Shown here: positions 2,705 to 44,179 of the stretch, one piece after another
Layout of the letters: each line of letters begins with the position of its first letter
Numbering within the stretch: position 1 is the stretch's first letter
DNA from: Gammaproteobacteria bacterium
GTDB lineage: Bacteria; Pseudomonadota; Gammaproteobacteria; S012-40
Direction of reading: 5' to 3'
Assembly (NCBI GenBank): GCA_029881255.1
Contig: JAOUMY010000005.1
Span: 66,479-130,478, forward strand
Length of the DNA: 64,000 nucleotides
Notes under the pieces: generated by a model
Databases searched by the model: none
What the model saw: only the letters and a program-made list of their open reading frames with translations
What the model was told of the DNA's origin: nothing
Program-made: the position numbers and the translations under genes

Positions 2705-2875
2705 GTCGTTGTAAATATTTTTCAACCGGTGATGAAATACTTTCACCGTTCAGAATAGGATATTCGCTATTAAGCGCTTTTTCCCATCTTACCCACATAG
2801 AATATAGCGTTGATATGTCGCGGCGTTTGATACATGTTAGGCAGCATCAAACGACAATACTATGAGAGGAAATCC

Positions 2876-4762: not shown

Positions 4763-4980
4763 ATTATTTGGTGAGTGTCTGTGGGCTTAAACAATAGCTT
4801 ACACAGCTTGATGATCCCGTTTAGTGGACTATCTTCCACGCCTTTTATTTAACCAGAAAAATAACGCGGATGTATCCCCGTGATTTTTCCAATTTGAACA
4901 AAATAAATCGACTGTTTCATAAAGAAAAATGGGGCGCTTCCCGATATAAGAAGTCACGGAAGACTCATGCAATCAACAAC

Positions 4981-9271: not shown

Positions 9272-9598
9272 TCAAGAATAGTCAGATTTAATGAAACACT
9301 CGGAATGGAAGAATTGGTTGAAGGTAATGCAGGCCAAATCCGCCATGTTCGTCTTGAAACTACGTCCACTTTCATGGAAGAGCCCATACGCTGGGACAAG
9401 CATTTTCGTGACGCCACGAAAATGGTCAAACGCGGCCAAGCGCTGACTGGATTCCGCCATCACTTGCAAATTGCGTATCACGACATCTTGTACCAACTGC
9501 GATGCATAAAACTGCTGTTTTCTCTCAACATATTGCTCAATGCTTTGATTGCAATCCAACATATGCTCAAGATAAATGGCATTGTCCTTTGCGCTCAT
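9272..9598 (-). pseudogene. DUF86/HepT-like (nucleotidyltransferase-substrate-binding toxin) gene, C-terminal half not recognisable
   Basis: N-terminal 55 aa (NAIYLEHMLDCNQSIEQYVERKQQFYASQLVQDVVIRNLQVMAESSQRL) match DUF86 closely. Homology stops exactly at the 35-bp palindromic element (9401-9435). No frame downstream shows the R-x4-HG-type C-terminal motif. Confidence 0.5.
9401..9435 (+). repeat. 35-bp palindrome-containing repeat, copy 1 (cattttcgtg-acgc-cacgaaaatg + gtcaaacgcgg)
   Basis: 10-bp perfect inverted repeat with a 4-nt loop followed by an 11-nt tail. Second copy at 11508-11542 differs by 1 nt. Confidence 0.7.
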
Positions 9599-10319: not shown

Positions 10320-11328
10320 CTACTCTTTCTCTACATCCTTCATCGTCGTCACCAGACGGTCAAAATCGCTTATGTATTCTTCATCCTGAATGACACGAAA
10401 TTTTTCAAACTCGGTTTCGGCCAAGGCTTTAGCTATACTGGATGTCACTTTACCCGCGTCATTGAGAAGCTCGTATTCGTTGAAGGCGAGAAAGCTGTCG
10501 AGTTTACTCACCCAATCTTGCATGTTCATCAAACGCTTCCGTAGCGCCCGACCTTCAGCAAAATCGAGATACATGGATACAATCCGATTTAGTTCCTTGA
10601 GCTCATCTTCTGAAAGATAGTTCTTAACCACTGTGACATCTGATTTTAAAATCTTCCCGCTTGGCGCCTGCTTCCATGAACTCAGCCCCATATTTGGTTT
10701 TCCGACATCGACGCGTTCGTGAATCAATCCCGCCGCCGTATGCCCTGTGACCGCCCAATGGAGTTTATTCTGCACTTGAGCAAAAAAACTGCTTGGTAAG
10801 CTCTGCATCACGATTATAGTCGGCGGAACACTGCGCATAGATATCCGTAATCTTCTGGTAAAACCGTCTCTCTGAGGCGCGAATCTCCCGAATACGCTCC
10901 AGCAACTCATCGAAGTAATCCTTGCCCCAGCTCTTCCCCTGCTTCAATCGCTCATCATCCAATACAAAGCCTTTCATGATGAACTCGCGCAATGTTTGAG
11001 TTGCCCAGATACGAAACTGCGTGGCCTGGTAGGAATTAACCCGGTACCCGACCGATACAATCGCGTCCAGATGATAGACATTGGTGTTGTAGGATTTGCC
11101 GTCGGCAGCAGTTATTCGAAAAATTCGAATAACTGAATCCTCATTCAACTCATTGATCTTAAATATTTCTTTTAAATGATAATTTATCGTCTGGACCTCA
11201 ACGCCAAACAATTCGGCCATCTGCTTCTGCGTTAACCAAAGATTCTCTTCCAGGAAATAGACGGCCAGACGAACCGCACCGTCGGGACCGGTATAAAAGA
11301 CGATTTGTGATTGAGGCTCGACATCCAC
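10320..11328 (-). pseudogene. RhuM-family protein gene (the family RAST calls DNA-binding protein in cluster with Type I R-M), frameshifted
   Basis: N-terminal ORF (10765-11328) carries IVFYTGPDGAVRLAVYFLEENLWLTQKQMAELFGV. C-terminal ORF (10320-10910) carries WAVTGHTAAGLIHERVDVGKPNMGLSSWKQAPSGKILKSDVTVVKNYLSEDELKELNRIVSMYLDFAE. The two halves are in different frames and switch near an A7 run at 10785-10791. Confidence 0.65.
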
Positions 11329-11507
11329 GGAATTGACCTTGATTTGAGTGAATGAAAGTGAAGGGCAATATTACTGTATATATGCACAGCTTACAAGGCC
11401 TTGAACCCCACTACGGTCCGCAGTATGTTTTTTTGAACTGATCACCCACATACGCAAGAATTGCTCGTCATTCATAACGCGCTACATATGTCGAGCAGTG
11501 AAAAAAC

Positions 11508-11542
11508 CATTTTCGTGACGGCACGAAAATGGTCAAACGCGG
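11508..11542 (+). repeat. 35-bp palindrome-containing repeat, copy 2
   Basis: cattttcgtgacgGcacgaaaatggtcaaacgcgg. Same orientation as copy 1. Confidence 0.7.
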
Positions 11543-13034: not shown

Positions 13035-14540
13035 CTAGTTCAATTCTCCATTCCCTGCCAACACCTCCTCCACACTTCTAAACTCCTCCAACGCCGCCTC
13101 TAACTGCTCCACTATCTCCTGCGCCAACACATGCGGTGGTGGAAGATTTTCGGTGTCTTCGAGTGATTCGTCTTTTAACCAAAAGATATCCAGATTGGTC
13201 TTATCCCGCGCAACTAACTCATCATAGGTAAATGAACGCCACCTACCTGTCATTCCGGCATTCTTTTGGCCGGAATCCGGTTTGTCACTCCATGTCGCTT
13301 TGCGCTTGCTTCGGTCTTCGGCTTTATAGCACTCGATAAACTCATCAAAATCACTCTTCACCAGGCGTTTTGTTTTCAGGGTCATGTGCACATTGGTGCG
13401 GTAGTCGTAGACCCAGAGTTTTTTGGTCCAGGCGGTTTTGGAGGCGGGTTTAGCGTCGAAGAAGATGACGTTGGCCTTGACGCCCTGGGCGTAGAAGATG
13501 CCGGTGGGCAGGCGCAGTAAGGTGTGGAGATCGGTGCGTTCGAGCAGGTTTTTGCGCACGGTTTCGCCGGCGCCGCCTTCGAAGAGGACGTTATCCGGCA
13601 CCACCACGGCGGCTTTGCCGTCGATCTTGAGCATGTTGGCGATGTGTTGCACGAAGTTGAGCTGTTTGTTGGAGGTGGTGGCCCAAAAGTCTTCGCGCTC
13701 ATAGACCAGCTTTTCCTGTTCTTTTTTACCGGTCTTTTCGTTGATGACGGTAATGGAGCTCTTTTTACCAAAGGGCGGATTGGCCAGGACCATATCGACT
13801 CGGTCATCCCCCACTTCTTTGGCCAGGGCATCATTGGCGCTAATCGGGCATTCATCGCCTCCGATACCGTGCAGGTATAAGTTCATGGCACATAAACGCA
13901 CCACGCTATCGACAATATCGTTACCGCGTAAGGCGTGTTCTTTGAGATGACGTTGTTCTTTTTTGGAGGTGGCTTGTGCCGCCATGTAATCGTGGGCGGC
14001 CAATAAAAAGCCGCCGGTACCACAGGCGGGATCGGCCACGGTGTCGGTGGGTTTGGGTTGCATCACCTCCACCATCGCCTGGATTAACGGGCGCGGGGTA
14101 AAGTATTGCCCGGCACCGCCTTTCACATCCTGCGCATTGCGTTCCAACAAGCCTTCATAGATGTCGCCCTTCACATCCGCCGGCAAGGTGGACCACTGCT
14201 CCTTGTCGATCATCTTTATCAGGCGTTCCAGCTTGGCGGGGTCCTGGATTTTGTTTTGCGCCTTGCGGAAGATCGTGCCTAACATGCCGCCTTGTTTACC
14301 CAGGTTTTCCAGGGTATGGCGGTATTGCAGTTCTAAATCATCACCATCGAGCTTCACCAAATGGCCCCAGTTGAATTTAGTCGGCACCTGTACTTGCTGA
14401 CCAGCGGTTTCACGCTCATCGGCCATTTTTAGGAAGATTAAATAGGTAATCTGTTCGACATAATCCCCATAACCCACACCATCGTCACGTAAAACGTGGG
14501 CATAGTTCCAGACTTTGTTTACTATTTCTGATGCGCTCAT
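13035..14540 (-). CDS. hsdM: Type I restriction-modification N6-adenine DNA methyltransferase subunit HsdM
   Basis: HsdM_N-type N-terminus VWNYAHVLRDDGVGYGDYVEQITYLIFLKMADE. SAM motif I DPACGTGGFL. Catalytic motif IV LANPPFG. 501 aa. Confidence 0.9.
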   Translation of the reverse strand: MSASEIVNKVWNYAHVLRDDGVGYGDYVEQITYLIFLKMADERETAGQQVQVPTKFNWGHLVKLDGDDLELQYRHTLENLGKQGGMLGTIFRKAQNKIQDPAKLERLIKMIDKEQWSTLPADVKGDIYEGLLERNAQDVKGGAGQYFTPRPLIQAMVEVMQPKPTDTVADPACGTGGFLLAAHDYMAAQATSKKEQRHLKEHALRGNDIVDSVVRLCAMNLYLHGIGGDECPISANDALAKEVGDDRVDMVLANPPFGKKSSITVINEKTGKKEQEKLVYEREDFWATTSNKQLNFVQHIANMLKIDGKAAVVVPDNVLFEGGAGETVRKNLLERTDLHTLLRLPTGIFYAQGVKANVIFFDAKPASKTAWTKKLWVYDYRTNVHMTLKTKRLVKSDFDEFIECYKAEDRSKRKATWSDKPDSGQKNAGMTGRWRSFTYDELVARDKTNLDIFWLKDESLEDTENLPPPHVLAQEIVEQLEAALEEFRSVEEVLAGNGELN

Positions 14541-14563
14541 TCTTTTACCATAAAATTAAGTTT

Positions 14564-17500
14564 TTACTTTTTATCAAAAGGGATTTCCTTGACTAATAGC
14601 GAGACACCAATTTGCCTGGCTTGGCTATTCAACCCATCAAGCAAATGAACCAACTGCGACGTTTCAGCAGTTCTTTTTGAATCGTCTTTGATAGCTTTAG
14701 TTAATTCCGCTTTATTGACACATCCAGCAGTAGCTAGCACTACATATAGATTACGTTCAGGTTGATCAATTATATCTCTCTTAATTTTTTTCCATAACGC
14801 AGAGGCTGTCGGCTGGCCAGCAGGATGCTTAAAAAGCCGAGGAATTTGAGTTGAATTCCATTTTTTTCCTCTAGCCCAACTTTCTACTCCCTTTGGGGAC
14901 TCTATATTCGGCGACATATAAACAATGTTTTTAGATGCTTGTGAAACTATGTCATGCAACGCTGATGCAGATATTTTTGAATTACCTTTATTTGCTTTTG
15001 CATGAACAAAGGCTAATGACTTACTTTTAAAATCGACACACACAAAGTCTGCCGCTTCACTTCCAAGGTCATCGCAGATGATAGTTGATGGTGCAAACGG
15101 TAAGCCTATTTTATTTTGGGATATTACTGAAAATAAACTCCCTTTTGGAAACTGTTTAGTATTATTAGCTTTTAGCTTCTTGATTTCTTCTTCAGTACCT
15201 TTCTCATTCTTACAAGCTGGTGCGTCATTAGGTATTTCTATTAATTGAAGCAAATATTTCTCAAAGTAAGAGTAATCAATCTGGTAAAAATTTCTACCCG
15301 AATAAATGCTAGAACCATCTTTCATGCAGACGGTAATCACATCCTGGTTTCGATTAAAATAATCTGAAAATGCAGTAGGCTTTATACCTGTCGAGTCACT
15401 AATTGTTATGCTGGATGAAGAGTCTTCTTTAGTAATCCAGAATTTACGTTTCTCTGGTTTATATTTTAAATGAAAATCAATATCTGTTTTCTTATCTTCT
15501 ACTGATTCGACTGGCAAAAAACTAAGCTTGAAGAGAAAGGTGTCTGAGCCACCATTTTTAGGTGAAACTTCAACAGAAGCTTTTTGGCATAAATATTGTT
15601 CATCTCCTCCGCCTATATAGAAAACGACATCTGATCTAAACATATCAAATGATATTGATCCTGGGTCAATCTTATCAGGGGGGTCGCAGGCCGGCATATA
15701 CCTTGATAGGAAAGCGGAAGGAGCCGTTGAAGAGTCCAGTGCCTTTGCAGTTGACTTTGCCCAAGAAATAAAACTTTTATAGTCATGATCACGCAAGGTT
15801 ACTGTGTCAGCTTCTTTTCTTACTCGTCCATTTCCGATATTCAAATAACGACGCTCTTTATTTGAATAGCCTCTAGTAGTTCTACAGATATGGATTCGAT
15901 CTGTTATCGATGGAGAAATCAAGGATAGATTTGACCCTCGTATATCCACTCCTCTCACTGAGGAATCAAAAGGGATAGTATTTTGAGTGCTAGCGTTTGT
16001 GGGTGTAAAGCTCTCATCAAAATACTTTGACAAAGTGCCAGCACCTACTGGCAATGTGTGTTCATCAATATATTCCATCGGTAGATTACCGGCTGAATCT
16101 GCAATAAACACATAGTTTTTTGTAACGACCACACAATGTGTCTCAAGCCTAATTTCGTAAAGTGATCTACGGTATGCTCTGCTTGAATTAGCAATGCTGG
16201 CATAAACCCACAAAGCAGAATCTTTACGTTTCTGACATGGTTCATTGAGATTCGGCCCTAAAATAGTCGCATCTTCAAGATTCAAAGTGTCGGTGCAATT
16301 TTCAATGTAATCAGAGAGATCGAATGATTTAACTTTCTTACGAACTATTGCTGTTGGTGGAACAATAACTTGTGCATCACTATCTAAAGTTGAAGGATCA
16401 AATTTCTTTAGGAATCTCCCACTAAAATATTCTATTTCAGGCTGCAATGAGAGAAGCTTCTCTACAGCTTCTTTGTAATGCTGAGCACTTCTTAATTCTT
16501 GATCTCTCTCAAAATTTCGATAAGATTCCCACTCTACTTGAGGGCTTATTTCTTTTGGTGAAAGGATAAGCGAACAAGCATCTTTCGAGTCATCCCCACT
16601 TTTTCGAAGTATTCTGCCAATCTGTTGGATTAATTTTCTATCATTAGAAAATGAAGTGAATAATGCAGTTACACAAAAACGATTATCATCGAAACCTTCT
16701 GTTAATTTGTTTTGATGAACCCAAATGGCTGCGTCTTCCTCTTGCGGATCTGGCACGCTGCTATATAGATATTCTTCTTTCCTGCCTTGAAATCTATCAT
16801 GGATGCCTATTGCATTTATCGAGTTCTTATTACTTCGCAGGGTTGTCACCACATCCTCAATATCTGAAACATCTTTGCAACAAATAATTGCTCTCGGATT
16901 TGAACTAGGAAGACTTTTGCTTTTTAATAGCGATATCCATCTCCCTAAGAAGATTTCTGTTTGAGTTTGTAGCCTATCCGTATTTACACAGCTCAACTTC
17001 TCAAATTTAACATCCCTAATAATATTATTAGAAACAGCATCTTCGTGAGTAAAATGAAAGCATTGTGATTTTGGATCTGTTATTCGAAATAACTTCAAGT
17101 CATTTCGATACGGAGTAGCTGTTAGAAGTATTGTTTTTGTATTTAATTCTTTCACTGAGCGACCCCAGCCAACAGCAGGCTCGTAGTGGCACTCATCTAC
17201 AATTACGAAAGAAATAGTCTTCGCTAAAAGTTCATAAGCCTCAGAATATTCTTTTCTTAGGGTGCTTAAAGTAGCGAATGTGGTAACAAAGATTGCATTA
17301 GGGTTTGATTGTAACGTCGCTTCTGCTACAGAAGGCTTTAATTCTCGCACTCTTCTTGTTGGATTCTGTATTCCGCACTTATCCCAAAATCTCTCTTTAA
17401 TATCCGCAATCAACTGATTTCTTAAATATGCCCAAGGGGTTATGACGAGAGAAGAACCTGAACACGACAACGCTGTCAACGAGGCTATAACACCTGTTTT

Positions 17501-17638
17501 TCCAGTACCCGTCGGCATGCGGACCAAGCAAGTATCAGAGTTTGAATTTAGATGATCAACAGAAAACTTAACAGCATCCTTTTGGTGCGTCCAAAGTTTT
17601 GCTGCATTACTACGCGAGATATGAGCAAACGACTTCAT
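14564..17638 (-). CDS. SF2 DExH helicase fused to large C-terminal region with PD-(D/E)xK-like nuclease signature (cargo gene C)
   Basis: Motif I MPTGTGKTG, motif II VIVDECHY, motif III LLTATPYRND, motif VI QQIGRILR. C-terminal IICDDLGSEAADFVCVDFKSKSLAFVHAKANKG resembles a D...(D/E)xK nuclease core. About 40 % GC versus about 52 % in the flanking hsd genes. Its ATG overlaps the stop of the hsdM remnant (ATGA). Confidence 0.75.
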   Translation of the reverse strand: MKSFAHISRSNAAKLWTHQKDAVKFSVDHLNSNSDTCLVRMPTGTGKTGVIASLTALSCSGSSLVITPWAYLRNQLIADIKERFWDKCGIQNPTRRVRELKPSVAEATLQSNPNAIFVTTFATLSTLRKEYSEAYELLAKTISFVIVDECHYEPAVGWGRSVKELNTKTILLTATPYRNDLKLFRITDPKSQCFHFTHEDAVSNNIIRDVKFEKLSCVNTDRLQTQTEIFLGRWISLLKSKSLPSSNPRAIICCKDVSDIEDVVTTLRSNKNSINAIGIHDRFQGRKEEYLYSSVPDPQEEDAAIWVHQNKLTEGFDDNRFCVTALFTSFSNDRKLIQQIGRILRKSGDDSKDACSLILSPKEISPQVEWESYRNFERDQELRSAQHYKEAVEKLLSLQPEIEYFSGRFLKKFDPSTLDSDAQVIVPPTAIVRKKVKSFDLSDYIENCTDTLNLEDATILGPNLNEPCQKRKDSALWVYASIANSSRAYRRSLYEIRLETHCVVVTKNYVFIADSAGNLPMEYIDEHTLPVGAGTLSKYFDESFTPTNASTQNTIPFDSSVRGVDIRGSNLSLISPSITDRIHICRTTRGYSNKERRYLNIGNGRVRKEADTVTLRDHDYKSFISWAKSTAKALDSSTAPSAFLSRYMPACDPPDKIDPGSISFDMFRSDVVFYIGGGDEQYLCQKASVEVSPKNGGSDTFLFKLSFLPVESVEDKKTDIDFHLKYKPEKRKFWITKEDSSSSITISDSTGIKPTAFSDYFNRNQDVITVCMKDGSSIYSGRNFYQIDYSYFEKYLLQLIEIPNDAPACKNEKGTEEEIKKLKANNTKQFPKGSLFSVISQNKIGLPFAPSTIICDDLGSEAADFVCVDFKSKSLAFVHAKANKGNSKISASALHDIVSQASKNIVYMSPNIESPKGVESWARGKKWNSTQIPRLFKHPAGQPTASALWKKIKRDIIDQPERNLYVVLATAGCVNKAELTKAIKDDSKRTAETSQLVHLLDGLNSQARQIGVSLLVKEIPFDKK

Positions 17639-17832
17639 ATAATTTGTACGCCATCACCCCAGGCTAATTTATTTGGTATCTGCATATACTGTCCGGCTTT
17701 TTCTCGCTCATCGGCCATTTTGAGGAAGATAAGATATGTTATTTGTTCAACATAGTCCCCGTGACCCACACCATAATTACGTAAGACGTGGGCGGAGTTC
17801 CAGACTTTATTGTCTATTTCTGGTGCGCTCAT
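17635..17832 (-). pseudogene. 5' remnant (65 codons) of a second, diverged hsdM
   Basis: MSAPEIDNKVWNSAHVLRNYGVGHGDYVEQITYLIFLKMADEREKAGQYMQIP versus the full HsdM MSASEIVNKVWNYAHVLRDDGVGYGDYVEQITYLIFLKMADERETAGQQVQVP. About 80 % nucleotide identity over about 150 bp. Homology ends at the helicase start codon. Confidence 0.8.
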
Positions 17833-17854
17833 TTTTTAATAGTCTTTATATTGT

Positions 17855-27571: not shown

Positions 27572-28480
27572 CTAAGCTGTTGATTTTATATACGGCACCC
27601 TCCCCACCGCCACCCCGTGCGCGTTCGCGCTTTCGCAGTGGACGAGTTGGTCGTCGAAAAATATGTGTGGGCGAAATGCCTTGAGGACTTCGCCTTTGGG
27701 CATGCCGCCGAGGAAAAACGTTTCGTCGAGGTCGACGTCCCAGGCGCGCAGGGTGCGGATGACGCGTTCGTGTGCGGGGCTGGCGCGGGCGGTGACGAGT
27801 GCGGTGCGTATCGGTTTGGGTTTGCTTGGGTGTTGGTTTTGTATATAGGCGAGGGATTTGAGTAATTTTGCGAACGGGCCTTCGGGTAGGGGTTTTTGTT
27901 TGTTGTCGCGTTCGTGTTTGACGAAGGCGTCCAGGCCTTGTTCTTTATAGATGCGTTCGGACTCGTCGGAGAACAACACCGCGTCGCCATCGAAGGCAAT
28001 GCGGATTTGATCAATTTCTGTCTGCTCGGGATGCGCCGGTGTTTCGTATAACAAGGCGGCGGCGATGTTGGCGTTGACTGCTGCTTGCACATCATCTTCA
28101 TACAGCGACAAAAACAAATCGATTTTGTAGGCGTGCAGATATGGCGCGAGGGTTTCACCGCCGGTGAGCGCGGCGCGTTGAATATCGAGGCCGTAGTGTT
28201 CGATGGAGTTGAATATGCGCAGACTGGTCTCGGCCGAATTGCGCGACATGATCACCACCTCGGTGGTGCGCTCGCCGGGCAGGGTTTGATTGAGTTTGAG
28301 AAAGGCCTTTACCAGCGGAAAACCGGGGCCGGGTTTGAGGATGTCGTTTTCGTGGGCGAGTTGATGGTCTTCATAGGCCCGGAGCCCCTGCTCGTCATAA
28401 ATGCGATTCTCCGCACTCAGGTCAAACAAGGCCCGCGAGGATATTCCAATAACGAGGTACTGACTGAGATCGACTGGCAA
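27572..28480 (-). CDS. HAD-superfamily 5'-nucleotidase (cN-IA-like / PF06189-type)
   Basis: HAD motif I IAFDGDAVLFSDESE (DxDxV). 302 aa. Family assignment from overall similarity recalled from memory, not searched. Confidence 0.5.
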   Translation of the reverse strand: MPVDLSQYLVIGISSRALFDLSAENRIYDEQGLRAYEDHQLAHENDILKPGPGFPLVKAFLKLNQTLPGERTTEVVIMSRNSAETSLRIFNSIEHYGLDIQRAALTGGETLAPYLHAYKIDLFLSLYEDDVQAAVNANIAAALLYETPAHPEQTEIDQIRIAFDGDAVLFSDESERIYKEQGLDAFVKHERDNKQKPLPEGPFAKLLKSLAYIQNQHPSKPKPIRTALVTARASPAHERVIRTLRAWDVDLDETFFLGGMPKGEVLKAFRPHIFFDDQLVHCESANAHGVAVGRVPYIKSTA

Positions 28481-33008: not shown

Positions 33009-33353
33009 ATGACACTGACCTATACACAACAGAAAGATGTTGCGGAGTTGTTGGCTGCACTCTTTAACGACAATGAATATCTCTACCACGTAAACAAAAT
33101 CAACCGCGAAACTGTGCGTTACGCGGAAGACGTTATTGTGATGTTCCGCTTCTGTAACAAGGCATCGGCTGGATTGTTGGCGGGGATACAGTGCATTCCG
33201 AAGTCTAAAAACATCTATGGCTGGTTACTAAGCTGTCTTCCTGCAGTACATAAAGTGGTCAAGGCCAATCGCGAGATTTTCTATTCTAATTTTATGTGCG
33301 ATATCGCAATACAGTCGCATCGAAATGCGCTTAAAGGGACGATGATCCGCTAG
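33009..33353 (+). CDS. hypothetical protein
   Basis: 114 aa. Its last 8 codons (HLKGTMIR*-like NALKGTMIR*) lie within the 32-bp repeat also found at 37756. Confidence 0.35.
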   Translation: MTLTYTQQKDVAELLAALFNDNEYLYHVNKINRETVRYAEDVIVMFRFCNKASAGLLAGIQCIPKSKNIYGWLLSCLPAVHKVVKANREIFYSNFMCDIAIQSHRNALKGTMIR

Positions 33354-33361
33354 TGGGGGCG
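33330..33361 (+). repeat. 32-bp direct repeat copy 1 (cttaaagggacgatgatccgctagtgggggcg)
   Basis: Identical 32-mer at 37756-37787. Confidence 0.7.
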
Positions 33362-35996: not shown

Positions 35997-36377
35997 TGAC
36001 TAGCCCCAGTAAAAGTAACCCGCCGGGGTGCGCAGATCTGACGGAATGCGTGGCGGGTGTTGTTGCTGCTAATTATCGGCAACTTTTTATCTTTTTCAAG
36101 GAGAAATTTACTGTTTGCGAAAAAAAGCGGCTGCGCTTTCAGTAAATACCTATGAAAAGCAGGCCTAGCAAATAACCGTTCAATTAGAGGTTCCGCATGT
36201 TGGAATATAGTTTTTAGAGACAATTCACCGCCCCTTTCCCTCTTTATTAATGTTTATTTTGTATTGCATAAGAATAATCGTAGTATCGTGATTTTACAAA
36301 AAGTAATTAATAATTTCATGTAGTTATTAGTACTTTCGGGGCAGCTCAGCAATTTTTGTGGCCTATCGGTTTCCCGC

Positions 36378-36541
36378 CTGGCGCGGGCGGTGACGAGTGC
36401 GGTGCGTATCGGTTTGGGTTTGCTTGGGTGTTGGTTTTGTATATAGGCGAGGGATTTGAGTAATTTTGCGAACGGGCCTTCGGGAGATATTGAGTTTGAG
36501 AAAGGCCTTTACCAGCGGAAAACCGGGGCCGGGTTTGAGGA
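36378..36541 (+). repeat. internally deleted, 100 %-identical fragment of the 5'-nucleotidase gene (copies of 27780-27886 and 28289-28341 joined)
   Basis: 107 bp identical to 27780-27886, a 4-nt junction, then 53 bp identical to 28289-28341. Same orientation as the parent gene. Confidence 0.8.
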
Positions 36542-36665
36542 AAGTAGGGGCAGATACCAGTTTTCGCTAATGTAAGCAGTAGCTTGTATCTGACCCGACT
36601 TTCCCTTGACCAGATGCAACATAAGAGTTATACGTTACATACATCTATTTAACGTATAACACCCT

Positions 36666-37755: not shown

Positions 37756-37787
37756 CTTAAAGGGACGATGATCCGCTAGTGGGGGCG
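37756..37787 (+). repeat. 32-bp direct repeat copy 2
   Basis: cttaaagggacgatgatccgctagtgggggcg. Forms the end of a tiny remnant ORF (…HLKGTMIR*). Confidence 0.7.
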
Positions 37788-37986: not shown

Positions 37987-39369
37987 TTGAACCAGACGCC
38001 CTTTTCCACACTTGCACTCAACCCCGCCCTGCTCGAGAACCTGAGCTCGCTCGGCTATACCGCCATGACACCCATCCAGGCGCAGAGTTTGCCGCATGTG
38101 CTGGCGGGCAAGGATGTGATTGCGCAGGCGAAGACAGGTTCTGGTAAGACCGCGGCATTTAGTCTGGGTTTGCTGGAAAAGCTGGATGTGCGAAACCTGC
38201 GTGTGCAGGGTTTGATTCTTTGCCCGACGCGGGAGCTGGCAGATCAGGTGGCGACCGAGGTGCGCAAACTGGGGCGCAGTATTCCGAACATCAAGGTGCT
38301 GACGCTGTGTGGCGGCACGCCCGTCGCGCCGCAGAAGGCCTCGCTGGAACATGGTGCGCATATCATCGTCGGCACACCTGGCCGGGTGGAGGATCACCTT
38401 AATCGCGGCTCGCTGAAACTCGATGGGCTCAACACCCTGGTACTGGATGAGGCGGATCGCATGCTCGATATGGGTTTTCAACCGGCGCTGGATGCAATTA
38501 TCGACGCCATACCCACGCAGCGTCAGACGCTATTGTTTAGTGCCACCTTTCCGCAGCAGATTCAATCCATCGCTAAGCGCGTGATGCGCGAGCCGGTATC
38601 GGTGCAGTTGGAAGAAACCCATGACAGCAGCAGTATTCAACAGCACTTCTTCAAACTCGATGACAATGTAGAACGTTTGACCGCCGTGCGTTTGCTGCTG
38701 CTCAAGCATCGGCCGGAATCCGCGGTGGTATTTTGTAATATGAAAAAGGACGCGCAGGAAATTGCAGATGAACTGGGCCGTTATGGCTTTACTGCCAAGG
38801 CCTTGCATGGTGATCTGGAACAACGTGAGCGTGATCAGACGCTGGTGCAGTTTGCCAACAAAAGTATTTCGATTCTGGTGGCGACCGATGTCGCGGCGCG
38901 CGGGCTGGATATCGATGCACTGGATGCGGTGATCAATTATCAACTGGCGCACGATGCGGAGGTACACGTGCACCGTGTCGGTCGCACCGGTCGCGCGGGT
39001 AACAAGGGCATTGCCTGTACTTTGTATTATGAAAAAGAGGCGCACAAATTGGCGCGGCTTGAGGAATATTTAGGCCGTTCGATCAAAGCCGAATCTCTGC
39101 CCTCTTTTAATGTGCTGGAAAAACCGGTCTATCGCGCAGCGATGGTGACACTACAAATCGATGGCGGTAAAAAACAGAAAGTCCGCGCCGGTGATATTCT
39201 GGGTGCACTGACCGGCGAAAACGGGATTGATGGAAAACAGGTGGGCAAGATTCAGTTATACGATAACTGGTCTTTTGTCGCAGTGCGACAGGAAGTCGCA
39301 AAGGCCGCGTTGCAGAAATTAACCCAGGGTAAATTGAAAGGCCGCTCGTTTCGAGTGCGGAAAATATAG
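37987..39369 (+). CDS. dbpA: ATP-dependent RNA helicase DbpA (DEAD-box with C-terminal 23S rRNA-binding RRM-like domain)
   Basis: Q motif/Walker A AKTGSGKTAAF. DEAD box VLDEAD. SAT. HRVGRTGRAG. C-terminal RBD VTLQIDGGKKQKVRAGDILGALTGE. Confidence 0.9.
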   Translation: MNQTPFSTLALNPALLENLSSLGYTAMTPIQAQSLPHVLAGKDVIAQAKTGSGKTAAFSLGLLEKLDVRNLRVQGLILCPTRELADQVATEVRKLGRSIPNIKVLTLCGGTPVAPQKASLEHGAHIIVGTPGRVEDHLNRGSLKLDGLNTLVLDEADRMLDMGFQPALDAIIDAIPTQRQTLLFSATFPQQIQSIAKRVMREPVSVQLEETHDSSSIQQHFFKLDDNVERLTAVRLLLLKHRPESAVVFCNMKKDAQEIADELGRYGFTAKALHGDLEQRERDQTLVQFANKSISILVATDVAARGLDIDALDAVINYQLAHDAEVHVHRVGRTGRAGNKGIACTLYYEKEAHKLARLEEYLGRSIKAESLPSFNVLEKPVYRAAMVTLQIDGGKKQKVRAGDILGALTGENGIDGKQVGKIQLYDNWSFVAVRQEVAKAALQKLTQGKLKGRSFRVRKI

Positions 39370-39432
39370 CGAGTTACTGAGAAAGTTGTGACTGAGCCTA
39401 CTTTCCGGGTTCGGTGAGTAATCCACTGTCAA

Positions 39433-40614
39433 TTACGGCACAAGCAAACGAAGCTCTTTGTCTTTCGTCAATTCCAATATCTGATGGTCCACCAATCCAT
39501 TCAAATCCCTGGAACAGGTTTTTGAACTTAGTTTTTGGTACAAGGCTTGATACCAGGGCTTGGCCTGCAATGTTTTCAATGGAAGCGATAGACCGGTTTC
39601 CATGATGGTGGTCACAATGATGTATTGGCGCTGATTGATCTTTCTATCGTTTAGTAAATTGTTGAGCATGTTTTCATACAACACTAGCGCAATTATACGA
39701 TTCGCTCTATCGTGCAATTGATTGATGACTGTCAACATCCCTTTGAGAAAGAAGCGGATAAATGCCGTATTGGGATTGGTTTCGCCGCTTTCCTCGGATT
39801 TTCTCGCCCGATTGAACACCGTAAAATATTCATCAATGTTGTCCAGATAAAAACGCGATAAGGCAAAATGTGCGTATTTATAACCTGCGCATTTCAGTAT
39901 CAACATCTCGACGACGCGACCAACCCTCCCATTACCATCCCAGAAGGGGTGTATGCGCTCAAAATAATAATGTGCGAGCGGTGCGCGTATGAGTGGCGGG
40001 AGACGTCGAATTTCGTCGCTATTGATCCACTCGATAAAGCTTCTCATTAGCAAGATAATGTCATCCTTGCACTTTGGTGGCGTATAAACACCGCCATGTT
40101 CTGCATCGCCAACCTTGGTCAACTGGCCTTTTAGGTTATCGCGATATTGACCTGGAACATTGAACGGATGACTTAGTTGTTGCGTAATCAGCTCATGTAA
40201 ATCTGTAAACATGGCTTCCTGCAAAGACACCGCGATGCCTTGTGCTGGAGAGTTGTCGCGCTTTAGAGAATTAATACATTGCTGGCTGAACGTTTCGGCT
40301 TTTTCATAGGCATGCTTGATGTTGATAACGCGCTGCTCAGTTTCATCGCGGCTCTCGGGAAGTCGCTCTATAACCCTGGCCGTTTCTTCCTCGCTAAGGG
40401 TACCGCCTTCTATGGTATTGGTGCCGAACACGCTGGCCGCCACCACTTCTTTTTCCAGACGCGCGGCGACGTCAGGGATAATAGGAATACTCGAAAACCG
40501 GTGATGGGCGTCCTCTATCCGCAACAAATCGGCCTCGATACTGGCCATATCGACACCGACCATAAAACGGAAGAAGCCTGAGCGGTGGGTTTCTATGCGT
40601 TTTTCTTTAGGCAT
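39433..40614 (-). CDS. Fic-family protein (AMPylation/Fido domain) with C-terminal winged-helix region
   Basis: Fic motif HPFWDGNGRVGR. 393 aa; start may be an internal Met. Confidence 0.8.
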   Translation of the reverse strand: MPKEKRIETHRSGFFRFMVGVDMASIEADLLRIEDAHHRFSSIPIIPDVAARLEKEVVAASVFGTNTIEGGTLSEEETARVIERLPESRDETEQRVINIKHAYEKAETFSQQCINSLKRDNSPAQGIAVSLQEAMFTDLHELITQQLSHPFNVPGQYRDNLKGQLTKVGDAEHGGVYTPPKCKDDIILLMRSFIEWINSDEIRRLPPLIRAPLAHYYFERIHPFWDGNGRVGRVVEMLILKCAGYKYAHFALSRFYLDNIDEYFTVFNRARKSEESGETNPNTAFIRFFLKGMLTVINQLHDRANRIIALVLYENMLNNLLNDRKINQRQYIIVTTIMETGLSLPLKTLQAKPWYQALYQKLSSKTCSRDLNGLVDHQILELTKDKELRLLVP

Positions 40615-40865
40615 ATTTTGTCCAGCTAAATGTCCAGCACATTTTCATTTATAACTATGTATTTTCAATGAGTTACATTTTTATTACTGGATTTATGTCA
40701 ATATTTATGTCCAGATGAATGGGAGAAGTATAGTCCATAGACCTCGGCCCGTCATGTCGACTTTTACGGCTTTTTTCGACATATCTGCCGGATATGTCGA
40801 TGTGGGAAACATGTTCGCGGCCCTGCCAGCCTGCGATTTGTTAGGATGCAACTGGTCCCCTCAAA

Positions 40866-41108
40866 GTGAGCAACACCGCCATGCAAGAATTTTTCATCGG
40901 CCCCCTATCCCGTTACACCTATGGCTGGATCGCTTTGTTTGTGTTTGCCTGTTTTGGGGTTTACATGATTTATCGTGCCCGGCAGGGGAAGCGGCTCGAT
41001 AAGTTTATCGCTCTGGGTTTGTCTGCCAGGGTTCAGTTGTGGTGCGGGGTGTTTTGTTTGTTGCCGGTGGTTTTGTATAGCTTTGGGGTTTTGTTGATTG
41101 GAGGTTAA
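40866..41108 (+). CDS. small membrane protein (2 TM), hypothetical
   Basis: 80 aa. WIALFVFACFGVYMIY and VFCLLPVVLYSFGVLLIGG are hydrophobic helices. Confidence 0.3.
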   Translation: MSNTAMQEFFIGPLSRYTYGWIALFVFACFGVYMIYRARQGKRLDKFIALGLSARVQLWCGVFCLLPVVLYSFGVLLIGG

Positions 41109-41110
41109 TA

Positions 41111-41207
41111 CACAAGGCTTTGGCCTTTTGCACTAACTCGCTAGTTACTTAGAGATTGACGGACTTTTTTGGGGCAGGCGAATCGCACAGGGCATGTTCG
41201 GTCATAG
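41111..41207 (-). pseudogene. ccdA-like antitoxin 5' remnant (18 codons then stop) plus diverged copy of the ccdA upstream region (41208-41290)
   Basis: Minus-strand MTEHALCDSPAPKKSVNL* versus intact CcdA MTEHALGYTPAPKKSVNLSVN. About 80 nt beyond are about 75 % identical to 43521-43620. Confidence 0.6.
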
Positions 41208-41274
41208 AAGGCTCCGAGTGTGGCATAGGTGCAGCACCTGCGCATCAAGCATGAAGAATCCGTGTGCGGACAGA

Positions 41275-41544
41275 TGCCAGTTTTCCGTGTTGGAAAAACC
41301 GGTCTATCGCGCGGCGATGGTGACACTACAAATCGATGGCGGCAAAAAACAAAAAGTCCGCGCCGGTGATATTCTCGGTGCACTTACCGGTGAAAACGGG
41401 ATCGATGGTAAACAGGTGGGCAAGATTCAGTTATACGACAACTGGTCTTTTGTCGCCGTGCGACAGGAAGTCGCGAAGGCCGCGTTGCAGAAATTAACCC
41501 AGGGTAAATTGAAAGGCCGTTCGTTTCGGGTGCGGCGGGTATAG
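41275..41544 (+). pseudogene. diverged duplicate of the last about 90 codons of dbpA (orphan 3' fragment)
   Basis: About 93 % nt identity to 39100-39369. Encodes a DbpA RBD identical except for the last residues (RVRRV versus RVRKI). No upstream dbpA body. Confidence 0.8.
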
Positions 41545-41777
41545 AACGTGGCGGAGTGGTTCCATCGGGCCCGAATAAAACATCCAAATTACCAATAATA
41601 TATCTTAATTTTTATACGATTAAGCAGCACACTGTTAGCCACTTCTATTAGACTTCCCTATCCATTGCAGGCATGATCCGCCACCTAAAATAACGAAAAT
41701 GAAGGGTATTAGCTGTGTCTCAATTTTTGTCGAGTTCGTCAACCGTGTTCGCTTCCTGGCAAAGTACTAGGTAGATT

Positions 41778-42827
41778 ATGTATAAAAATACTTTTGTTTT
41801 TCTAATTACCGTACTCATTTTTTTGTTGTCTACGGCGTGTGCTCACAAAAAAACACAAATCGTATTGAAGAACACGCCGACTGAGGAAAGTGAGTTTCAT
41901 TTAGCGCCTGAGGAACTGTTGGGGAAATATCCGGATGTAGAGGGATTACATCCTGAGAACTATCTAAAATATCAAATCGCGCTTTCTGGAACTTCCTCGC
42001 CCGACTTAAATGAGCGGGCAGATAAGTCAACACTAGTCAATGCACTAGGCGAACCCGATAGGATTGAACTTCATAAGCGCTCAATCGTGGACTTTCTTTC
42101 GTCTCCTCCTATGTTTGGCCTTTTGTTTTTAAGTCCCTTGCTGATTGAGCCAATTGTCACCGGGGGTGTTCTCGCAGGTCTTGGCATACAGTATTTTGTA
42201 CAGCCACGTGAAGAGGATCTTTACTGGACCAAAGGCGACTATCTCATAGAAGCGCACACCATATCGGGAAGATACAGAAAAGAAGCTAAATGGGAGTGGT
42301 TCTACAAAATAAATGATAGTGAAAATCTTTCGTCACCGATTGTTTCAAGATCCAACAGCGCTAGCTACGGAGGCTTGTCGCTGAGTAATTTTTCGAGATT
42401 TGGCGATCAACTTTATAATCGAAAAACATATATCTCCATACTGTATGGTAAATCTTTCCAAGCTCCCTACCTATTCGACAACATCAATCTCGATGCCGCA
42501 GCCAGTATACAATCCACTACAAAAGAAAAATATTATCTGCTGGACATAACTAACCAGGCGATTTTTCTCAGCGGCTCGTACAACATCAATAACAATAAAC
42601 AAGAACTAGGCATTGGCATAACCTACGAAACATCGCTCCCGGATGTTTTCATCGACGGATATCTAGGCCGAGTTGGCGCTTACGCTGAATTCAACTTGCG
42701 CAAACAACGCGAAACACAAACCGTCATACGCATCGGCGCAGTCAGAAGTATTGACCCGTTTGAAAACAAGGCCAGCTATTTTCGCATATCCTGGATACAA
42801 AAATTCCAGAATCGTAGGCTGCACTAG
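41778..42827 (+). CDS. lipoprotein, paralogue of 56748-57803
   Basis: Lipobox LLSTAC. Shared motifs WTKGDYLIEAH...KWEWFYK versus WQKGNYRIDTR...WEWFHR. Confidence 0.55.
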   Translation: MYKNTFVFLITVLIFLLSTACAHKKTQIVLKNTPTEESEFHLAPEELLGKYPDVEGLHPENYLKYQIALSGTSSPDLNERADKSTLVNALGEPDRIELHKRSIVDFLSSPPMFGLLFLSPLLIEPIVTGGVLAGLGIQYFVQPREEDLYWTKGDYLIEAHTISGRYRKEAKWEWFYKINDSENLSSPIVSRSNSASYGGLSLSNFSRFGDQLYNRKTYISILYGKSFQAPYLFDNINLDAAASIQSTTKEKYYLLDITNQAIFLSGSYNINNNKQELGIGITYETSLPDVFIDGYLGRVGAYAEFNLRKQRETQTVIRIGAVRSIDPFENKASYFRISWIQKFQNRRLH

Positions 42828-42954
42828 GGAGTACAAACACTAAAAGGCGGTTCTAACGCTGCGCGACATGATGTATTTCGAGGATCGCGATGTGAATACT
42901 ATGCAGGGTCAGATTGAGAAAGTAGGTTCAGTTACCAGCTAACGATAGAATCTG

Positions 42955-43269
42955 CTAAAACCCCACAACCAGAAAATCCACCGCATCCACAATCTCCCCC
43001 CGCTGTTGCTGTAAGGAGCCAACATACTCACCCAAATCCGTTGTCGAAATACCGGCCATTTCCGCCGTCGACATAAATACCTTTTTGCCTTCGATTTCAA
43101 AACGCGGGTTGAGACGGCCGATGGGTTTGCTATTCGCACTTTCTTTGATCAACGGAACAACGAGGCGTGTGTTCAGCGTTTCGAATAAGTCATTTTGCAC
43201 GTCGAGTAAGTAAGGAACGGTTTGTCGCGTCGCGGGATTGGGGTTGCGATAGACGCCGAACTGGGCCAC
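42955..43269 (-). CDS. ccdB: CcdB-family toxin (gyrase poison fold)
   Basis: 104 aa. MAQFGVYRNPNPATRQTVPYLLDVQNDLFETLNTRLVVPL parallels CcdB [23 protein letters not shown]. Overlaps the ccdA stop. Confidence 0.7.
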   Translation of the reverse strand: MAQFGVYRNPNPATRQTVPYLLDVQNDLFETLNTRLVVPLIKESANSKPIGRLNPRFEIEGKKVFMSTAEMAGISTTDLGEYVGSLQQQRGEIVDAVDFLVVGF

Positions 43270-43520
43270 TAGAACTTCCTCTTGCCGTCACTAAACACAC
43301 CTTGGTCCGCTGTTCGTTTGTTGTAATCGTCGATGGCGTCGGCATTTTCTGCGATCCAGTTTTGCCGTTCCTTTTCACGTATGGCCTGGACCAGGGCGAC
43401 TTCGAGCAGGGCAGAGAGGTTAATGCCCAGACCTTTTGCCTTTTGCACTAACTCGCTGTTTACACTGAGATTGACGGATTTTTTTGGGGCAGGCGTATAA
43501 CCCAGGGCATGTTCGGTCAT
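43269..43520 (-). CDS. ccdA: CcdA-family antitoxin
   Basis: 83 aa. KKSVNLSVNSELVQKAKGLGINLSALLEVALVQAIREKERQNWIAENADAIDDYNK matches the CcdA ribbon-helix-helix plus C-terminal toxin-binding region. Confidence 0.7.
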   Translation of the reverse strand: MTEHALGYTPAPKKSVNLSVNSELVQKAKGLGINLSALLEVALVQAIREKERQNWIAENADAIDDYNKRTADQGVFSDGKRKF

Positions 43521-43690
43521 AGGTGGTTCCGTATTTGGTATAGGGGAAGTATATGCGCACTATTTATGCGCATCAAGCACGAAAAACCCATCTGCGGACA
43601 GATTCCCATTTCCCATTTAACCCTATCGCCAAAGCCGGGTTTGTGCCGCATAATAGCCGCCCTTTTGCCCACGCCCGCGAGCACGCCCGT

Positions 43691-43951
43691 ATGCCTGACA
43701 ACAAGATTTATCTGAGCAATCTGAATAAGCTTGCGACGGAAGCCGATTTGAAACGGCATTTTTCCACCTATGGCGCAGTCACCGAGGTGCATTTGCCGCG
43801 TGAGAAGAAGACCAAGGAGGCCAAGGGTTACGCCTTTGTCACCTTTGCCTACGAGGATTCGGCGCGACGGGCGCTGGAGCAGGACGGCAAGCCTTATATG
43901 GATCAAACGATCACGGTCCAAATCGCCATTGAAAAAAACCCCAGGAAGTAG
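43691..43951 (+). CDS. RRM-domain RNA-binding protein (second copy in window)
   Basis: KIYLSNL (RNP-2) and KGYAFVTF (RNP-1). Start at internal ATG 43691; the ORF track extends to 43553. Confidence 0.7.
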   Translation: MPDNKIYLSNLNKLATEADLKRHFSTYGAVTEVHLPREKKTKEAKGYAFVTFAYEDSARRALEQDGKPYMDQTITVQIAIEKNPRK

Positions 43952-43957
43952 ACCCCC

Positions 43958-44179
43958 ATGACGAATAACGAAATTATGAAAAAACTGCGCATCGCCCTCG
44001 ACCTCAAAGAGATCGATTTGTACGAGATCTTCGAGCTATCGGGTTATGAGATCAGCAAGTCGGAGTTATCGGGGATTTTTCGCTCGGAAGGTCACAAGAA
44101 TTACAAAGCCTGTAGCGACCTGGTGCTGAATCATTTTTTGAATGGCTACATTATTTATAAGCGTGGTGAAAAAGAATAA
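43958..44179 (+). CDS. DUF1456 (YehS-like) family protein
   Basis: 73 aa. MTNNEIMKKLRIALDLKEIDLYEIF...LNHFLNGYIIYKRGEK matches the DUF1456 tandem-repeat pattern. Confidence 0.6.
   Translation: MTNNEIMKKLRIALDLKEIDLYEIFELSGYEISKSELSGIFRSEGHKNYKACSDLVLNHFLNGYIIYKRGEKE

Follow-up and report, generated by a model that had tools for sequence, protein, structure and literature searches.

Cis-mobilisable elements and other cargo that lacks an integrase, for example the remnants in tandem integrative arrays such as tycheposons, lie between att repeats with a fixed core defined by integrase-carrying relatives. In E. coli K-12, icd and icdC surround the cryptic prophage e14 (and phage 21): the 3' end of the intact housekeeping gene is part of the insert, a displaced 3' fragment is left on the other side of it, and the copies differ mostly at synonymous positions, with a couple of conservative amino acid changes; e14 encodes its own integrase and excises after SOS induction, and when the DNA between the repeats is deleted, a functional chimeric gene is restored (PMC13626634). 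The 3'-end ('C-terminal') displacement arrays of Rhs, CDI and T6SS effector-immunity genes have been attributed to homology-facilitated illegitimate recombination (PMC5361080 and the work cited there). In these arrays, the conserved upstream part of the gene is the homologous anchor, the incoming DNA brings a new end and its cargo, and the old end and cargo, an allele from a different lineage, are pushed downstream and kept, all without a recombinase; the variable 3' end is a toxin domain, and retention of the immunity gene is selected.

The locus described here lies at the 3' end of dbpA in a 64-kb stretch of gammaproteobacterial DNA (the window). It shares with icd/icdC the intact gene, the 3' end borne by the insert, the displaced fragment and the predominantly synonymous differences, but, unlike e14, has no recombinase, measures only 2.2 kb and has a far end homologous to resident sequence downstream. 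Small cargo without a recombination gene, held between direct repeats from the end of the target gene, is also what cis-mobilisable elements look like; no integrase-carrying relatives that would define a core were found for the dbpA islet. With the Rhs, CDI and T6SS arrays the locus has in common the anchor, the new end with cargo, the retained old end and the alleles of apparently different lineages. The duplicated end of dbpA, however, encodes a conserved RNA-binding domain, the same protein in both copies but for two residues, and the cargo consists of separate defense and toxin-antitoxin genes. The features are as follows, with A and B denoting the two pairs of repeats.

37987-39369, + strand: intact dbpA, 460 aa (Pfam DEAD, Helicase_C and DbpA RNA-binding domains).
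39112-39369, + strand: repeat copy A1, the last 85 codons and stop of the functional dbpA, comprising the end of the linker and the whole RNA-binding domain.
39433-40614, - strand: SoFic-type Fic gene (Pfam Fic, 2.5e-16; PADLOC SoFic, E = 1.6e-45).
40727-40802, - strand: putative Fic promoter/operator region, with the inverted repeat TCGACATATC-N5-GATATGTCGA at 40776-40800 and a -35/-10-like site.
40866-41108, + strand: small ORF of 80 aa with two hydrophobic segments; no family match.
41101-41205, - strand: ccdA 5' remnant of 35 codons, part of B1, with a stop at codon 19 (41149-41151).
41206-41286, no strand: copy of the ccdA-upstream intergenic region, 81 nt, the rest of B1; on the right it meets A2 at the novel junction.
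41287-41544, + strand: repeat copy A2, the displaced dbpA 3' end, with a complete RNA-binding domain and no frameshift or stop.
41778-42827, + strand: ORFan gene, the second segment's cargo; its 349-aa product has a lipoprotein-like N-terminus and no homologue besides itself.
42955-43269 (ccdB) and 43269-43520 (ccdA), - strand: intact toxin-antitoxin pair (Pfam CcdB, 2.9e-33; CcdA, 2.3e-25).
43416-43614, no strand: repeat copy B2, comprising codons 1-35 of the intact ccdA and the preceding 94 nt, with a promoter-like site at 43576-43548 (- strand).
43691-44179, + strand: gene for an RRM-type RNA-binding protein and DUF1456 gene (Pfam), the right-hand frame of the variable segment.

The protein encoded by the window dbpA can be aligned along its whole length, residues 1-460, with DbpA from other Gammaproteobacteria (60-77% identity). 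A sequence-only reading of the window had noticed that the tail of this gene recurs at about 93% identity, with mostly synonymous changes, on the far side of a Fic gene, a small membrane ORF and a ccdA remnant with a copy of its upstream region; all of this holds, except that the starts it gave, 39100 and 41275, lie some 10 nt too far left. A1 and A2 are 258-nt direct repeats that align without gaps (93% identity; BLAST E = 1e-107 within the window), are spaced 2.2 kb apart and flank a Fic islet of 2,175 bp, so that 39112-39369 and 41287-41544 resemble target-derived attL and attR. The similarity starts on the left at GTG(C/T)TGGAAAAACC and ends on the right exactly at the TAG stop. Among the 18 nucleotide differences, 14 are single synonymous changes scattered across the first 83 codons, where no non-synonymous change is found; the other four fall in the last two codons (AAA ATA versus CGG GTA) and exchange K for R and I for V. 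The copies share identical runs of 44, 29, 29, 23 and 22 nt, the 22-nt run being at the left edge. Over 249 nt the pair is 94% identical and, with the rest of dbpA upstream, provides a homologous anchor for RecA-dependent exchange.

At 41286/41287, ccdA-upstream sequence switches abruptly to dbpA codon 376, the single novel junction of the locus. This junction is real. It is present in three assemblies and is covered by a Logan unitig (L083, k=31) that is 100% identical to 39315-41505 and by a k141 contig from a sister assembly (L178) that is 99.95% identical to 40771-42982. The window derives from a metagenome, and a sister sample has a second strain with another right-hand context of Fic, so that two co-occurring strain haplotypes might have been threaded into one contig; yet the B1|A2 junction lies inside the k=31 unitig and two k=141 contigs from separate assemblies, and k=141 assembly phases both dbpA copies unambiguously because they differ at least every 44 nt, the longest identical run they share. 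An assembly artefact is thus barely credible.

The A pair has dN=0 and dS=0.28 over 83 codons, and the non-coding part of the B pair K=0.28. These equal neutral distances, which rest on small counts (14 changes over 60.7 synonymous sites; 19 of 81 aligned non-coding nt mismatched) and have wide confidence ranges, are what a split between the same two lineages would produce in both pairs. Under decay of one copy in place since the duplication, the chance of finding no non-synonymous change among the 14 would be 2e-6 to 2e-5, which, together with dN=0, argues that most of the divergence arose in working dbpA ends in different genomes. Both C-terminal endings, RKI and RRV, are within the variation of functional DbpA proteins. 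The A copies appear to have diverged under purifying selection in separate genomes, and, by dN, dS and K, the duplicated parts would be alleles of different lineages, not in-situ paralogues. Since A2 lost its function, it has accumulated a neutral divergence of no more than 0.016 (95% bound), which suggests that A2 has been non-functional only briefly. Given that B1 is visibly decayed and A2 undamaged, the join is probably recent and used a ccdA remnant that was already decayed.

B1 as a whole matches 43416-43614 at 76-81% identity. Its coding part differs from the intact ccdA in seven non-synonymous and three synonymous codons; its upstream part shares 77% identity with 43521-43614 (81 aligned nt) and carries a 13-nt deletion that takes in the -10 hexamer. 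It directly abuts A2, and its homologue B2 follows 2.3 kb further on in the same order and orientation. The ccdA-plus-upstream DNA has no match in PLSDB plasmids or in about 170 other fetched loci, and B1 and B2 appear to be specific relatives. The remnant, first taken as part of the cargo, more plausibly represents the right flank that this locus has in another lineage, and the repeated toxin-antitoxin-mediated turnover proposed for this region is not borne out: the remnant only shows a partial deletion of ccdAB in one haplotype. In the second segment, ccdB and ccdA are adjacent and both intact (42955-43520), and the ORFan gene beside them has no homologue other than itself among 5.8 billion proteins and no Pfam, NCBIfam or PADLOC match. 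To the right, DUF1456 adjoins dbpA in a few relatives (L007, L014 and L100), in the first of these together with an RRM gene. Comparable scars occur in the same defense island: a duplication of the 5' part of hsdM around an inserted gene, and a 5'-nucleotidase pseudogene.

The Fic protein contains the active-site motif HPFWDGNGRVGR, which conforms to HxFx(D/E)GNGRxxR, and the internal inhibitory motif TNTIEG. Its PADLOC match covers 285 of the 361 positions of the SoFic profile, and its score against the NCBIfam SoFic equivalog model, 64.5 bits, is below the 550-bit cut-off; it is therefore SoFic-like rather than an equivalog. The profile match and the catalytic and inhibitory motifs link it to SoFic, a single-gene anti-phage defense system (PMC12249575), and we predict that this cargo is an anti-phage defense gene. 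With the Fic stop only 63 nt from the dbpA stop, no small antitoxin-like gene comparable to the 47-aa AS1 is evident downstream. Sequence conservation with two other Fic loci (L165 and L166) extends upstream as far as the promoter/operator region. On the L166 contig, single defense genes are stacked between copies of a 5'-nucleotidase 3' end, the left ends of which differ. Homologues of the Fic gene are single genes in unrelated contexts, without integrases alongside. In a relative with an 83%-identical Fic, a dbpA fragment lies 26 nt from the Fic stop, and a co-occurring strain (L164) retains the A1 end and Fic and diverges to the right of 40943; these arrangements fit a long-standing dbpA-Fic haplotype rather than a newly arrived element. 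The small ORF may not be a real gene: its end runs into the ccdA remnant, and position 40943, where L164 begins to differ, is within it.

With X and Y for the cargo of the two segments, the locus reads A1-X-B1|A2-Y-B2; the members of each repeat pair are in direct orientation, and their order is the same in both segments. A junction of the type A-X-B|A-Y-B would result from joining one copy of a segment by its end to the start of a second copy, and, with the segments coming from two haplotypes, recombinational stacking fits the locus better than integration at an att site. The sequence establishes the anatomy of the locus, its novel junction, the pattern of selection and the equality of the neutral distances; a two-haplotype origin, a recombination mechanism and a direction of transfer are what we infer: two diverged haplotypes of one variable chromosome segment would have been stacked in tandem by recent recombination, a reading to which we assign a probability of roughly 0.55. 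The variable segment would extend from the dbpA end encoding the RNA-binding domain to the ccdA-RRM intergenic region. Version 1 would comprise A1, the SoFic-type Fic gene, the small ORF and the already decayed ccdA remnant in B1, and version 2 would comprise A2, the ORFan lipoprotein gene and the intact ccdBA pair together with upstream region B2. The DNA entering the cell would have come from a related lineage, at a distance of about 0.28 substitutions per neutral site, and would have undergone one homologous crossover in dbpA, where the ends are 94% identical and identical runs reach 44 nt. The other end would have been joined illegitimately, either by homology-facilitated illegitimate recombination or by Campbell-type insertion of a circularised fragment, which would have created the only novel junction, B1|A2. 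As an outcome, dbpA would have stayed intact with the A1 end, A2 would be a displaced, non-functional but undamaged fragment of the other allele, and the cell would have been left with both sets of cargo, the Fic defense gene on the one hand and ccdAB with the ORFan on the other. Haplotypes could be compared in the same organism, assembled three times, and in a strain variant of which part is sequenced (L164); no genome with either single haplotype, dbpA-Fic-ccdA'-RRM or dbpA-ORFan-ccdBA-RRM, was found, and the closest DbpA in all collections is at most 79% identical.

Weighing against stacking, no clear microhomology is retained at B1|A2, the 22 nt that match perfectly where the repeat begins on the left might function as an att core, and an integrase supplied in trans, with Campbell-type insertion of an excised circle, would give exactly this structure. 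The sequence-only reading had indeed proposed site-specific integration into the dbpA 3' end, and part of that proposal stands: the gene is intact, the islet follows and the 258 displaced nucleotides are pristine. In its full form, a circular element with an attP from the dbpA 3' end, Fic, the small ORF and the ccdA remnant would have supplied A1 as the new gene end and displaced the original A2, its tyrosine or serine recombinase having been lost or acting in trans, and the islet would be decayed or cis-mobilisable. The structure of icd/icdC around e14, with mostly synonymous differences in the displaced fragment (PMC13626634), is a precedent, and a repeat that runs from the 22-nt identical left edge to the exact stop is what would be expected of an element that only restores the reading frame. 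Serial att integration could likewise account for the Fic and other single defense genes of L166, each flanked by 3'-end copies of another gene, and DbpA RNA-binding-domain fragments without the helicase core occur in other metagenomes (L179 and L180), and in some database ORFs this domain is fused to unrelated N-termini. However, neither the islet nor any of the ORFs tested across the window has a recombinase domain, in agreement with the earlier remark that no integrase remains, and the Rac integrase used as a tblastn query finds nothing in the window. The phage, plasmid and IMG/VR collections contain no attP from the dbpA end and no dbpA 3' fragment beside an integrase; the sole match annotated as DbpA in a phage record is the host flank of a Rac-like prophage. 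A duplicated 3' end occurs in none of the 161 other dbpA loci, and the element itself has no match in those phage, plasmid and IMG/VR collections. The junction sites form no hairpin or att-like structure beyond chance, and the left ends of the L166 repeats differ, contrary to a fixed crossover core. The homology of B1 to resident sequence, in order, orientation and neutral distance, would have to be a coincidence, and if both segments belonged to one element family, a third dbpA copy would be expected after B2, where there is none. Integration of this kind is accordingly possible but doubtful, and a decayed integrase-type element is less likely than a crossover with an illegitimate join.

Two further readings are much less plausible. 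In the first, A2 is a selected stand-alone mini-gene for the DbpA RNA-binding domain, expressed from the relic of the ccdA/RRM divergent promoter. The absence of non-synonymous changes over 83 codons would suit such a gene, as would the entire Pfam DbpA domain (E = 1.6e-26) in an open frame of 97-116 codons, the 97-aa protein predicted by gene callers of two sources and the short DbpA-domain ORFs in databases. Recency alone, though, explains dN=0, and most of the short database ORFs are chimeras or fragments from contig edges, and hence uninformative. No candidate start is preceded by a Shine-Dalgarno-like sequence, no promoter-like site is found on the + strand at 41100-41320, the N-terminal extension is antisense ccdA sequence, and the adjoining ccdA remnant is decayed, with a deletion in its promoter region. 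The NCBI locus tags also skip one number between the flanking genes, which would correspond to a pseudogene call. We consider the mini-gene very unlikely. A tandem duplication within one genome, with slow divergence in place and later replacement of the cargo in one copy, is slightly less plausible again: A-X-B|A-Y-B is formally a tandem-duplication junction, but a redundant, decaying tail should gain non-synonymous changes, the two cargos show no similarity, and at least two further events would be needed to reach the present structure. In-situ duplication with a decaying copy was rejected at a P of about 1e-5, within the range given above for 0 of 14.

Stacking of two haplotypes would make the dbpA islet an ordinary kind of genome-island footprint, and nothing in it points to an active mobile element. 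Through its 258-nt direct repeats, the 2,175-bp islet should be open to RecA-mediated loss, which would regenerate an intact chimeric dbpA. In a wider and unlikely reading, the 3' ends of conserved genes at island borders would be reusable docking sequences on which single-gene defense cassettes are stacked without a cassette-borne recombinase; the genes concerned would be dbpA here and the 5'-nucleotidase gene in the window and in L166, and the cassettes would include SoFic, AbiD, Bro-N, YhcG and RhuM. If this were true, such loci would amount to an integron-like array on host gene ends, driven by a trans-acting recombinase that has escaped recognition or by a regular route of homology plus end joining, and the many fusions of the DbpA domain to unrelated N-termini in databases would be further scars of the same process.

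Within the 248-kb metagenome contig that contains the window (ENA ERZ27296367 k141_1977797; the same proteins appear at NCBI under 'MAG: Gammaproteobacteria bacterium'), the dbpA gene is intact and is followed by a short islet and a repeat of its 3' end, in the following arrangement.

Features of the dbpA locus (window coordinates)
37987-39369: dbpA, intact, 460 aa, with DEAD, Helicase_C and DbpA domains
39433-40614, minus strand: Fic gene, convergent with dbpA
40866-41108: small ORF with two hydrophobic segments
41101-41286: ccdA 5' remnant with its upstream region (B1)
41287-41544: second dbpA end (A2)
41778-42827: ORFan, lipoprotein-like
42955-43520, minus strand: ccdB/ccdA, intact
right of ccdBA: RRM-protein gene, then DUF1456 gene

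The last 258 nt of dbpA (A1, 39112-39369) and A2 (41287-41544) are 93% identical and align without gaps (repeat finder; BLAST E=1e-107), with the similarity ending on the right exactly at the stop codon and on the left at codon 376, 12 residues ahead of the Pfam DbpA domain. A second direct pair, 76-81% identical (BLAST E=6e-35), consists of B1 (41101-41286), which comprises ccdA codons 1-35 plus 81 nt upstream and directly abuts the displaced dbpA end, and B2 (43416-43614), which lies at the intact ccdAB, one segment further on and in the same orientation. With X denoting the Fic gene and small ORF and Y the ORFan and ccdBA, the order of the locus is A1-X-B1|A2-Y-B2, the type of junction that arises when two copies of a segment are joined head to tail. 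This junction (41286/41287) is crossed by a Logan unitig (L083, 100% identity) and by a contig of a sister assembly (L178, 99.95%), and the longest identical run between the dbpA copies, 44 nt, is far under the assembly k of 141; an assembly artefact is rejected because independent assemblies span the junction, and chance similarity of the dbpA copies is rejected as well. Thus, the sequence-only reading correctly described a duplicated dbpA tail around an islet and a gene-end footprint made up of an intact dbpA, the islet and a displaced tail.

The substitution pattern is informative about the origin of the two dbpA ends. They differ at 18 positions, 14 of which are single synonymous changes, all within the first 83 codons (dN=0 over 188.3 non-synonymous sites, dS=0.28 over 60.7 synonymous sites); the last two codons, AAA ATA versus CGG GTA, give K>R and I>V, and both C-terminal endings fall within functional DbpA variation (FRVR[QRK][ILM]). 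Decay in place would predict about 54-61% non-synonymous differences, so that the probability of observing 0 of 14 is 2e-6 to 2e-5, and in-situ duplication followed by decay is rejected on this ground. Therefore, the two copies diverged as ends of working dbpA genes in different genomes, and one of them appears to have been acquired horizontally, its donor lineage being about 0.28 substitutions per neutral site distant. The neutral divergence of A2 since the loss of function is at most 0.016 (95% bound), so the event was recent; the substitution pattern indicates a related donor lineage as well as a recent date. A2 is an undamaged dbpA pseudogene fragment, and the ORF at 41287-41544 is to be annotated as such. 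GC3 falls gradually along dbpA, with no break at 39112, and is uninformative as to which copy is native.

The second repeat pair gives the same distance. In its non-coding part, 19 of the 81 aligned nucleotides differ (K=0.28, equal to the dS of the dbpA pair); B1 is decayed: codon 19 is a stop, the codon differences from the intact ccdA comprise 7 that are non-synonymous against 3 that are synonymous, and a 13-nt deletion has taken out the -10 hexamer. The equal neutral distances at the two repeat pairs, if taken at face value, show that the locus gained an entire second version of itself instead of having its own version replaced. The ccdA remnant, previously taken together with the intact ccdAB as a trace of repeated toxin-antitoxin turnover, was probably misread, given the join of B1 to A2, the position and orientation of B2 and this K value. 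The ccdA-plus-upstream DNA has no match in plasmids or in about 170 other fetched loci, and B1 and B2 are therefore specific relatives rather than two random mobile copies of ccdAB.

The simplest reading of these observations is that two lineages each carried their own version of the locus, dbpA-Fic-small ORF-ccdA'-RRM and dbpA-ORFan-ccdBA-RRM, and that the two were stacked. Such stacking would require a single homologous exchange within dbpA together with a single illegitimate join at 41286/41287, that is, acquisition of related-lineage DNA apparently by homologous plus illegitimate recombination. The ORFan (349 aa, lipoprotein-like signal LSTAC, low GC of 43%) found only itself among 5.8 billion proteins. 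By analogy with the icd/icdC precedent, recombination between the 258-nt repeats could precisely remove the 2,175-bp islet and leave an intact chimeric dbpA; the nearby ccdAB may disfavour larger deletions.

The sequence-only reading had instead proposed a site-specific integrative element that targeted the dbpA 3' end and subsequently lost its integrase. The final structure is indeed indistinguishable from the one that e14 leaves in icd (PMC13626634), and the left edge of the repeat holds a 22-nt identical stretch. An integrase is absent, as that reading stated: no recombinase or transposase domain was detected in the islet or in any tested ORF across the window, and tblastn with the Rac integrase was negative. 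The suggested search for a larger element carrying a dbpA attP, conducted with the DbpA tail, the Fic protein, the islet DNA and exact core strings, yielded no donor-like sequence among phages, plasmids or IMG/VR; the only phage record with an annotated DbpA match describes a Rac-like prophage and takes in the entire host dbpA along with ttcA. Furthermore, none of the 161 other dbpA loci, of which 118 extend for 3 kb or more past the gene, has a duplicate of its 3' end, the junction sequences fold into hairpin or att-like structures no better than shuffled controls, Rfam has no match in the repeat region, and a third dbpA copy, expected after B2 if both segments belonged to one element family, is not there. 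An empty site was sought by scanning GTDB genomes and JGI metagenomes with DbpA, by a search of 5.8 billion proteins and by exact-protein look-ups, which yielded, apart from the organism itself, just relatives whose DbpA is at most 79% identical and whose synteny does not extend past dbpA. Given the lack of a recombinase, a donor attP or any other duplicated dbpA end, and the B1|A2 stacking junction, site-specific integration is probably wrong; the e14-like structure, the 22-nt stretch, the 79% identity of the closest DbpA and the lack of ORFan homologues are the reasons for which we keep it as an unlikely explanation with some weight.

It could also be supposed that A2 is a stand-alone gene for the RNA-binding domain maintained by selection, which would likewise yield dN=0, but its frame has no preceding ribosome-binding site or plus-strand promoter, and the N-terminal extension of this frame is antisense ccdA. 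A phmmer search of 1.84 billion cluster representatives produced many short DbpA-domain matches, mostly contig-edge fragments or possible chimeric assemblies. Numerous short ORFs in the databases (P0248-P0397) consist of the DbpA RNA-binding domain after unrelated N-termini, including ribosomal protein S4, HsdS, an IS transposase and a short-chain dehydrogenase, and on two 1-kb contigs (L179 and L180) DbpA-domain-coding fragments were confirmed with no helicase core upstream, the one on L179 facing a DbpA-like helicase gene on the opposite strand. These may represent additional displaced ends of dbpA or, alternatively, products of chimeric assembly.

The Fic protein of the islet matches the PADLOC SoFic profile (E=1.6e-45) and retains both the catalytic and the inhibitory motifs; SoFic has been described as a single-gene abortive-infection defence (PMC12249575). 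In a co-occurring strain from a sister sample (L164), the A1-type dbpA end and the Fic gene are kept at 99.2% identity, with the mismatches concentrated at 40521-40941; to the right of 40943, an unrelated gene end (L164 positions 1-188; 64 aa, no family match) stands in place of the small ORF, the ccdA remnant and the dbpA remnant. In another sequence (L165; Logan SRR21398039, 1552-1696), 26 nt separate an 83%-identical Fic from a 5' fragment of dbpA (codons about 46-68, 88% nucleotide identity with the window); the two are again convergent, so that dbpA and Fic are linked in a second lineage, at a different breakpoint. On a related contig (L166; ENA ERZ25073485 NODE_542, 1-7885), a Fic homologue of 79% identity is one of several defence genes that stand singly in an array: Fic, Bro-N, YhcG, an AbiD remnant and RhuM. 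Between them lie five partial copies of a 5'-nucleotidase gene, each consisting of its last 62-250 nt and 88-100% identical, and the complete gene closes the array on the right; in most copies homology is lost near the stop codon, and their left ends differ. This arrangement resembles a series of cassettes built on the 3' end of a host gene. Fic homologues at greater distance occur singly and dispersed, in unrelated neighbourhoods that contain no integrases.

The locus is part of a defence island (about 9.4-44 kb of the window) that includes a frameshifted RhuM, a type I restriction system with inserted genes, an HTH-M78 gene, a 5'-nucleotidase gene, a truncated AbiD, NTP_transf_8, SoFic and ccdAB. 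The RhuM region (10320-11328) consists of two overlapping ORFs, probably split by a frameshift, and together with a small MarR-like ORF is flanked by a 38-nt direct repeat (9398-9435 and 11505-11542, 94.7% identical). Within the type I restriction operon, a ResIII/DEAD gene (14564-17638, 1,024 aa) is inserted between two copies of the hsdM 5' end (14365-14545 and 17657-17837; 181 nt, the first ~175 nt plus a few upstream bases) that are 3.3 kb apart and 79.6% identical, with 13 synonymous and 13 non-synonymous codon differences; this duplication is another gene-end scar of the same island. A 5'-nucleotidase pseudogene (36272-36566; aa 39-64 and 199-269) adjoins the truncated AbiD and contains two stretches 100% identical to the intact gene at 27572-28480 (36378-36484 to 27780-27886 and 36489-36541 to 28289-28341), the remainder being only about 58% identical at the protein level, which suggests gene conversion. 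The abiF RNA motif (Rfam RF03085) matches below threshold (26.9 bits, the gathering score being 37; E=0.2) at 36018-36057 on the minus strand, directly upstream of the truncated AbiD/Abi_2 gene, where it usually occurs. Two direct repeats of 32 nt without mismatches lie at 33330-33361 and 37756-37787: one spans the final codons of a 105-aa ORF, and the other falls within a 57-aa ORF in the NTP_transf_8-dbpA intergenic region; apart from this repeat, the two proteins are unrelated.

Gene-end scars that recur with varying breakpoints and lack recombinases agree with recombinational stacking, a mechanism put forward for Rhs and T6SS arrays (PMC5361080). The dbpA locus is a fresh instance of an already known island-border scar and no new kind of system: dbpA remains intact, and a SoFic-type gene that has a conserved promoter/operator of its own (40727-40802) is gained with the islet. 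The locus provides a clean, datable case in which a small set of defence genes was added beside a core gene, leaving that gene unharmed and apparently involving no mobile-element machinery. Together with the other partial duplications in the island, it suggests that recombination scars, rather than att sites, may account for some integrase-less islets.
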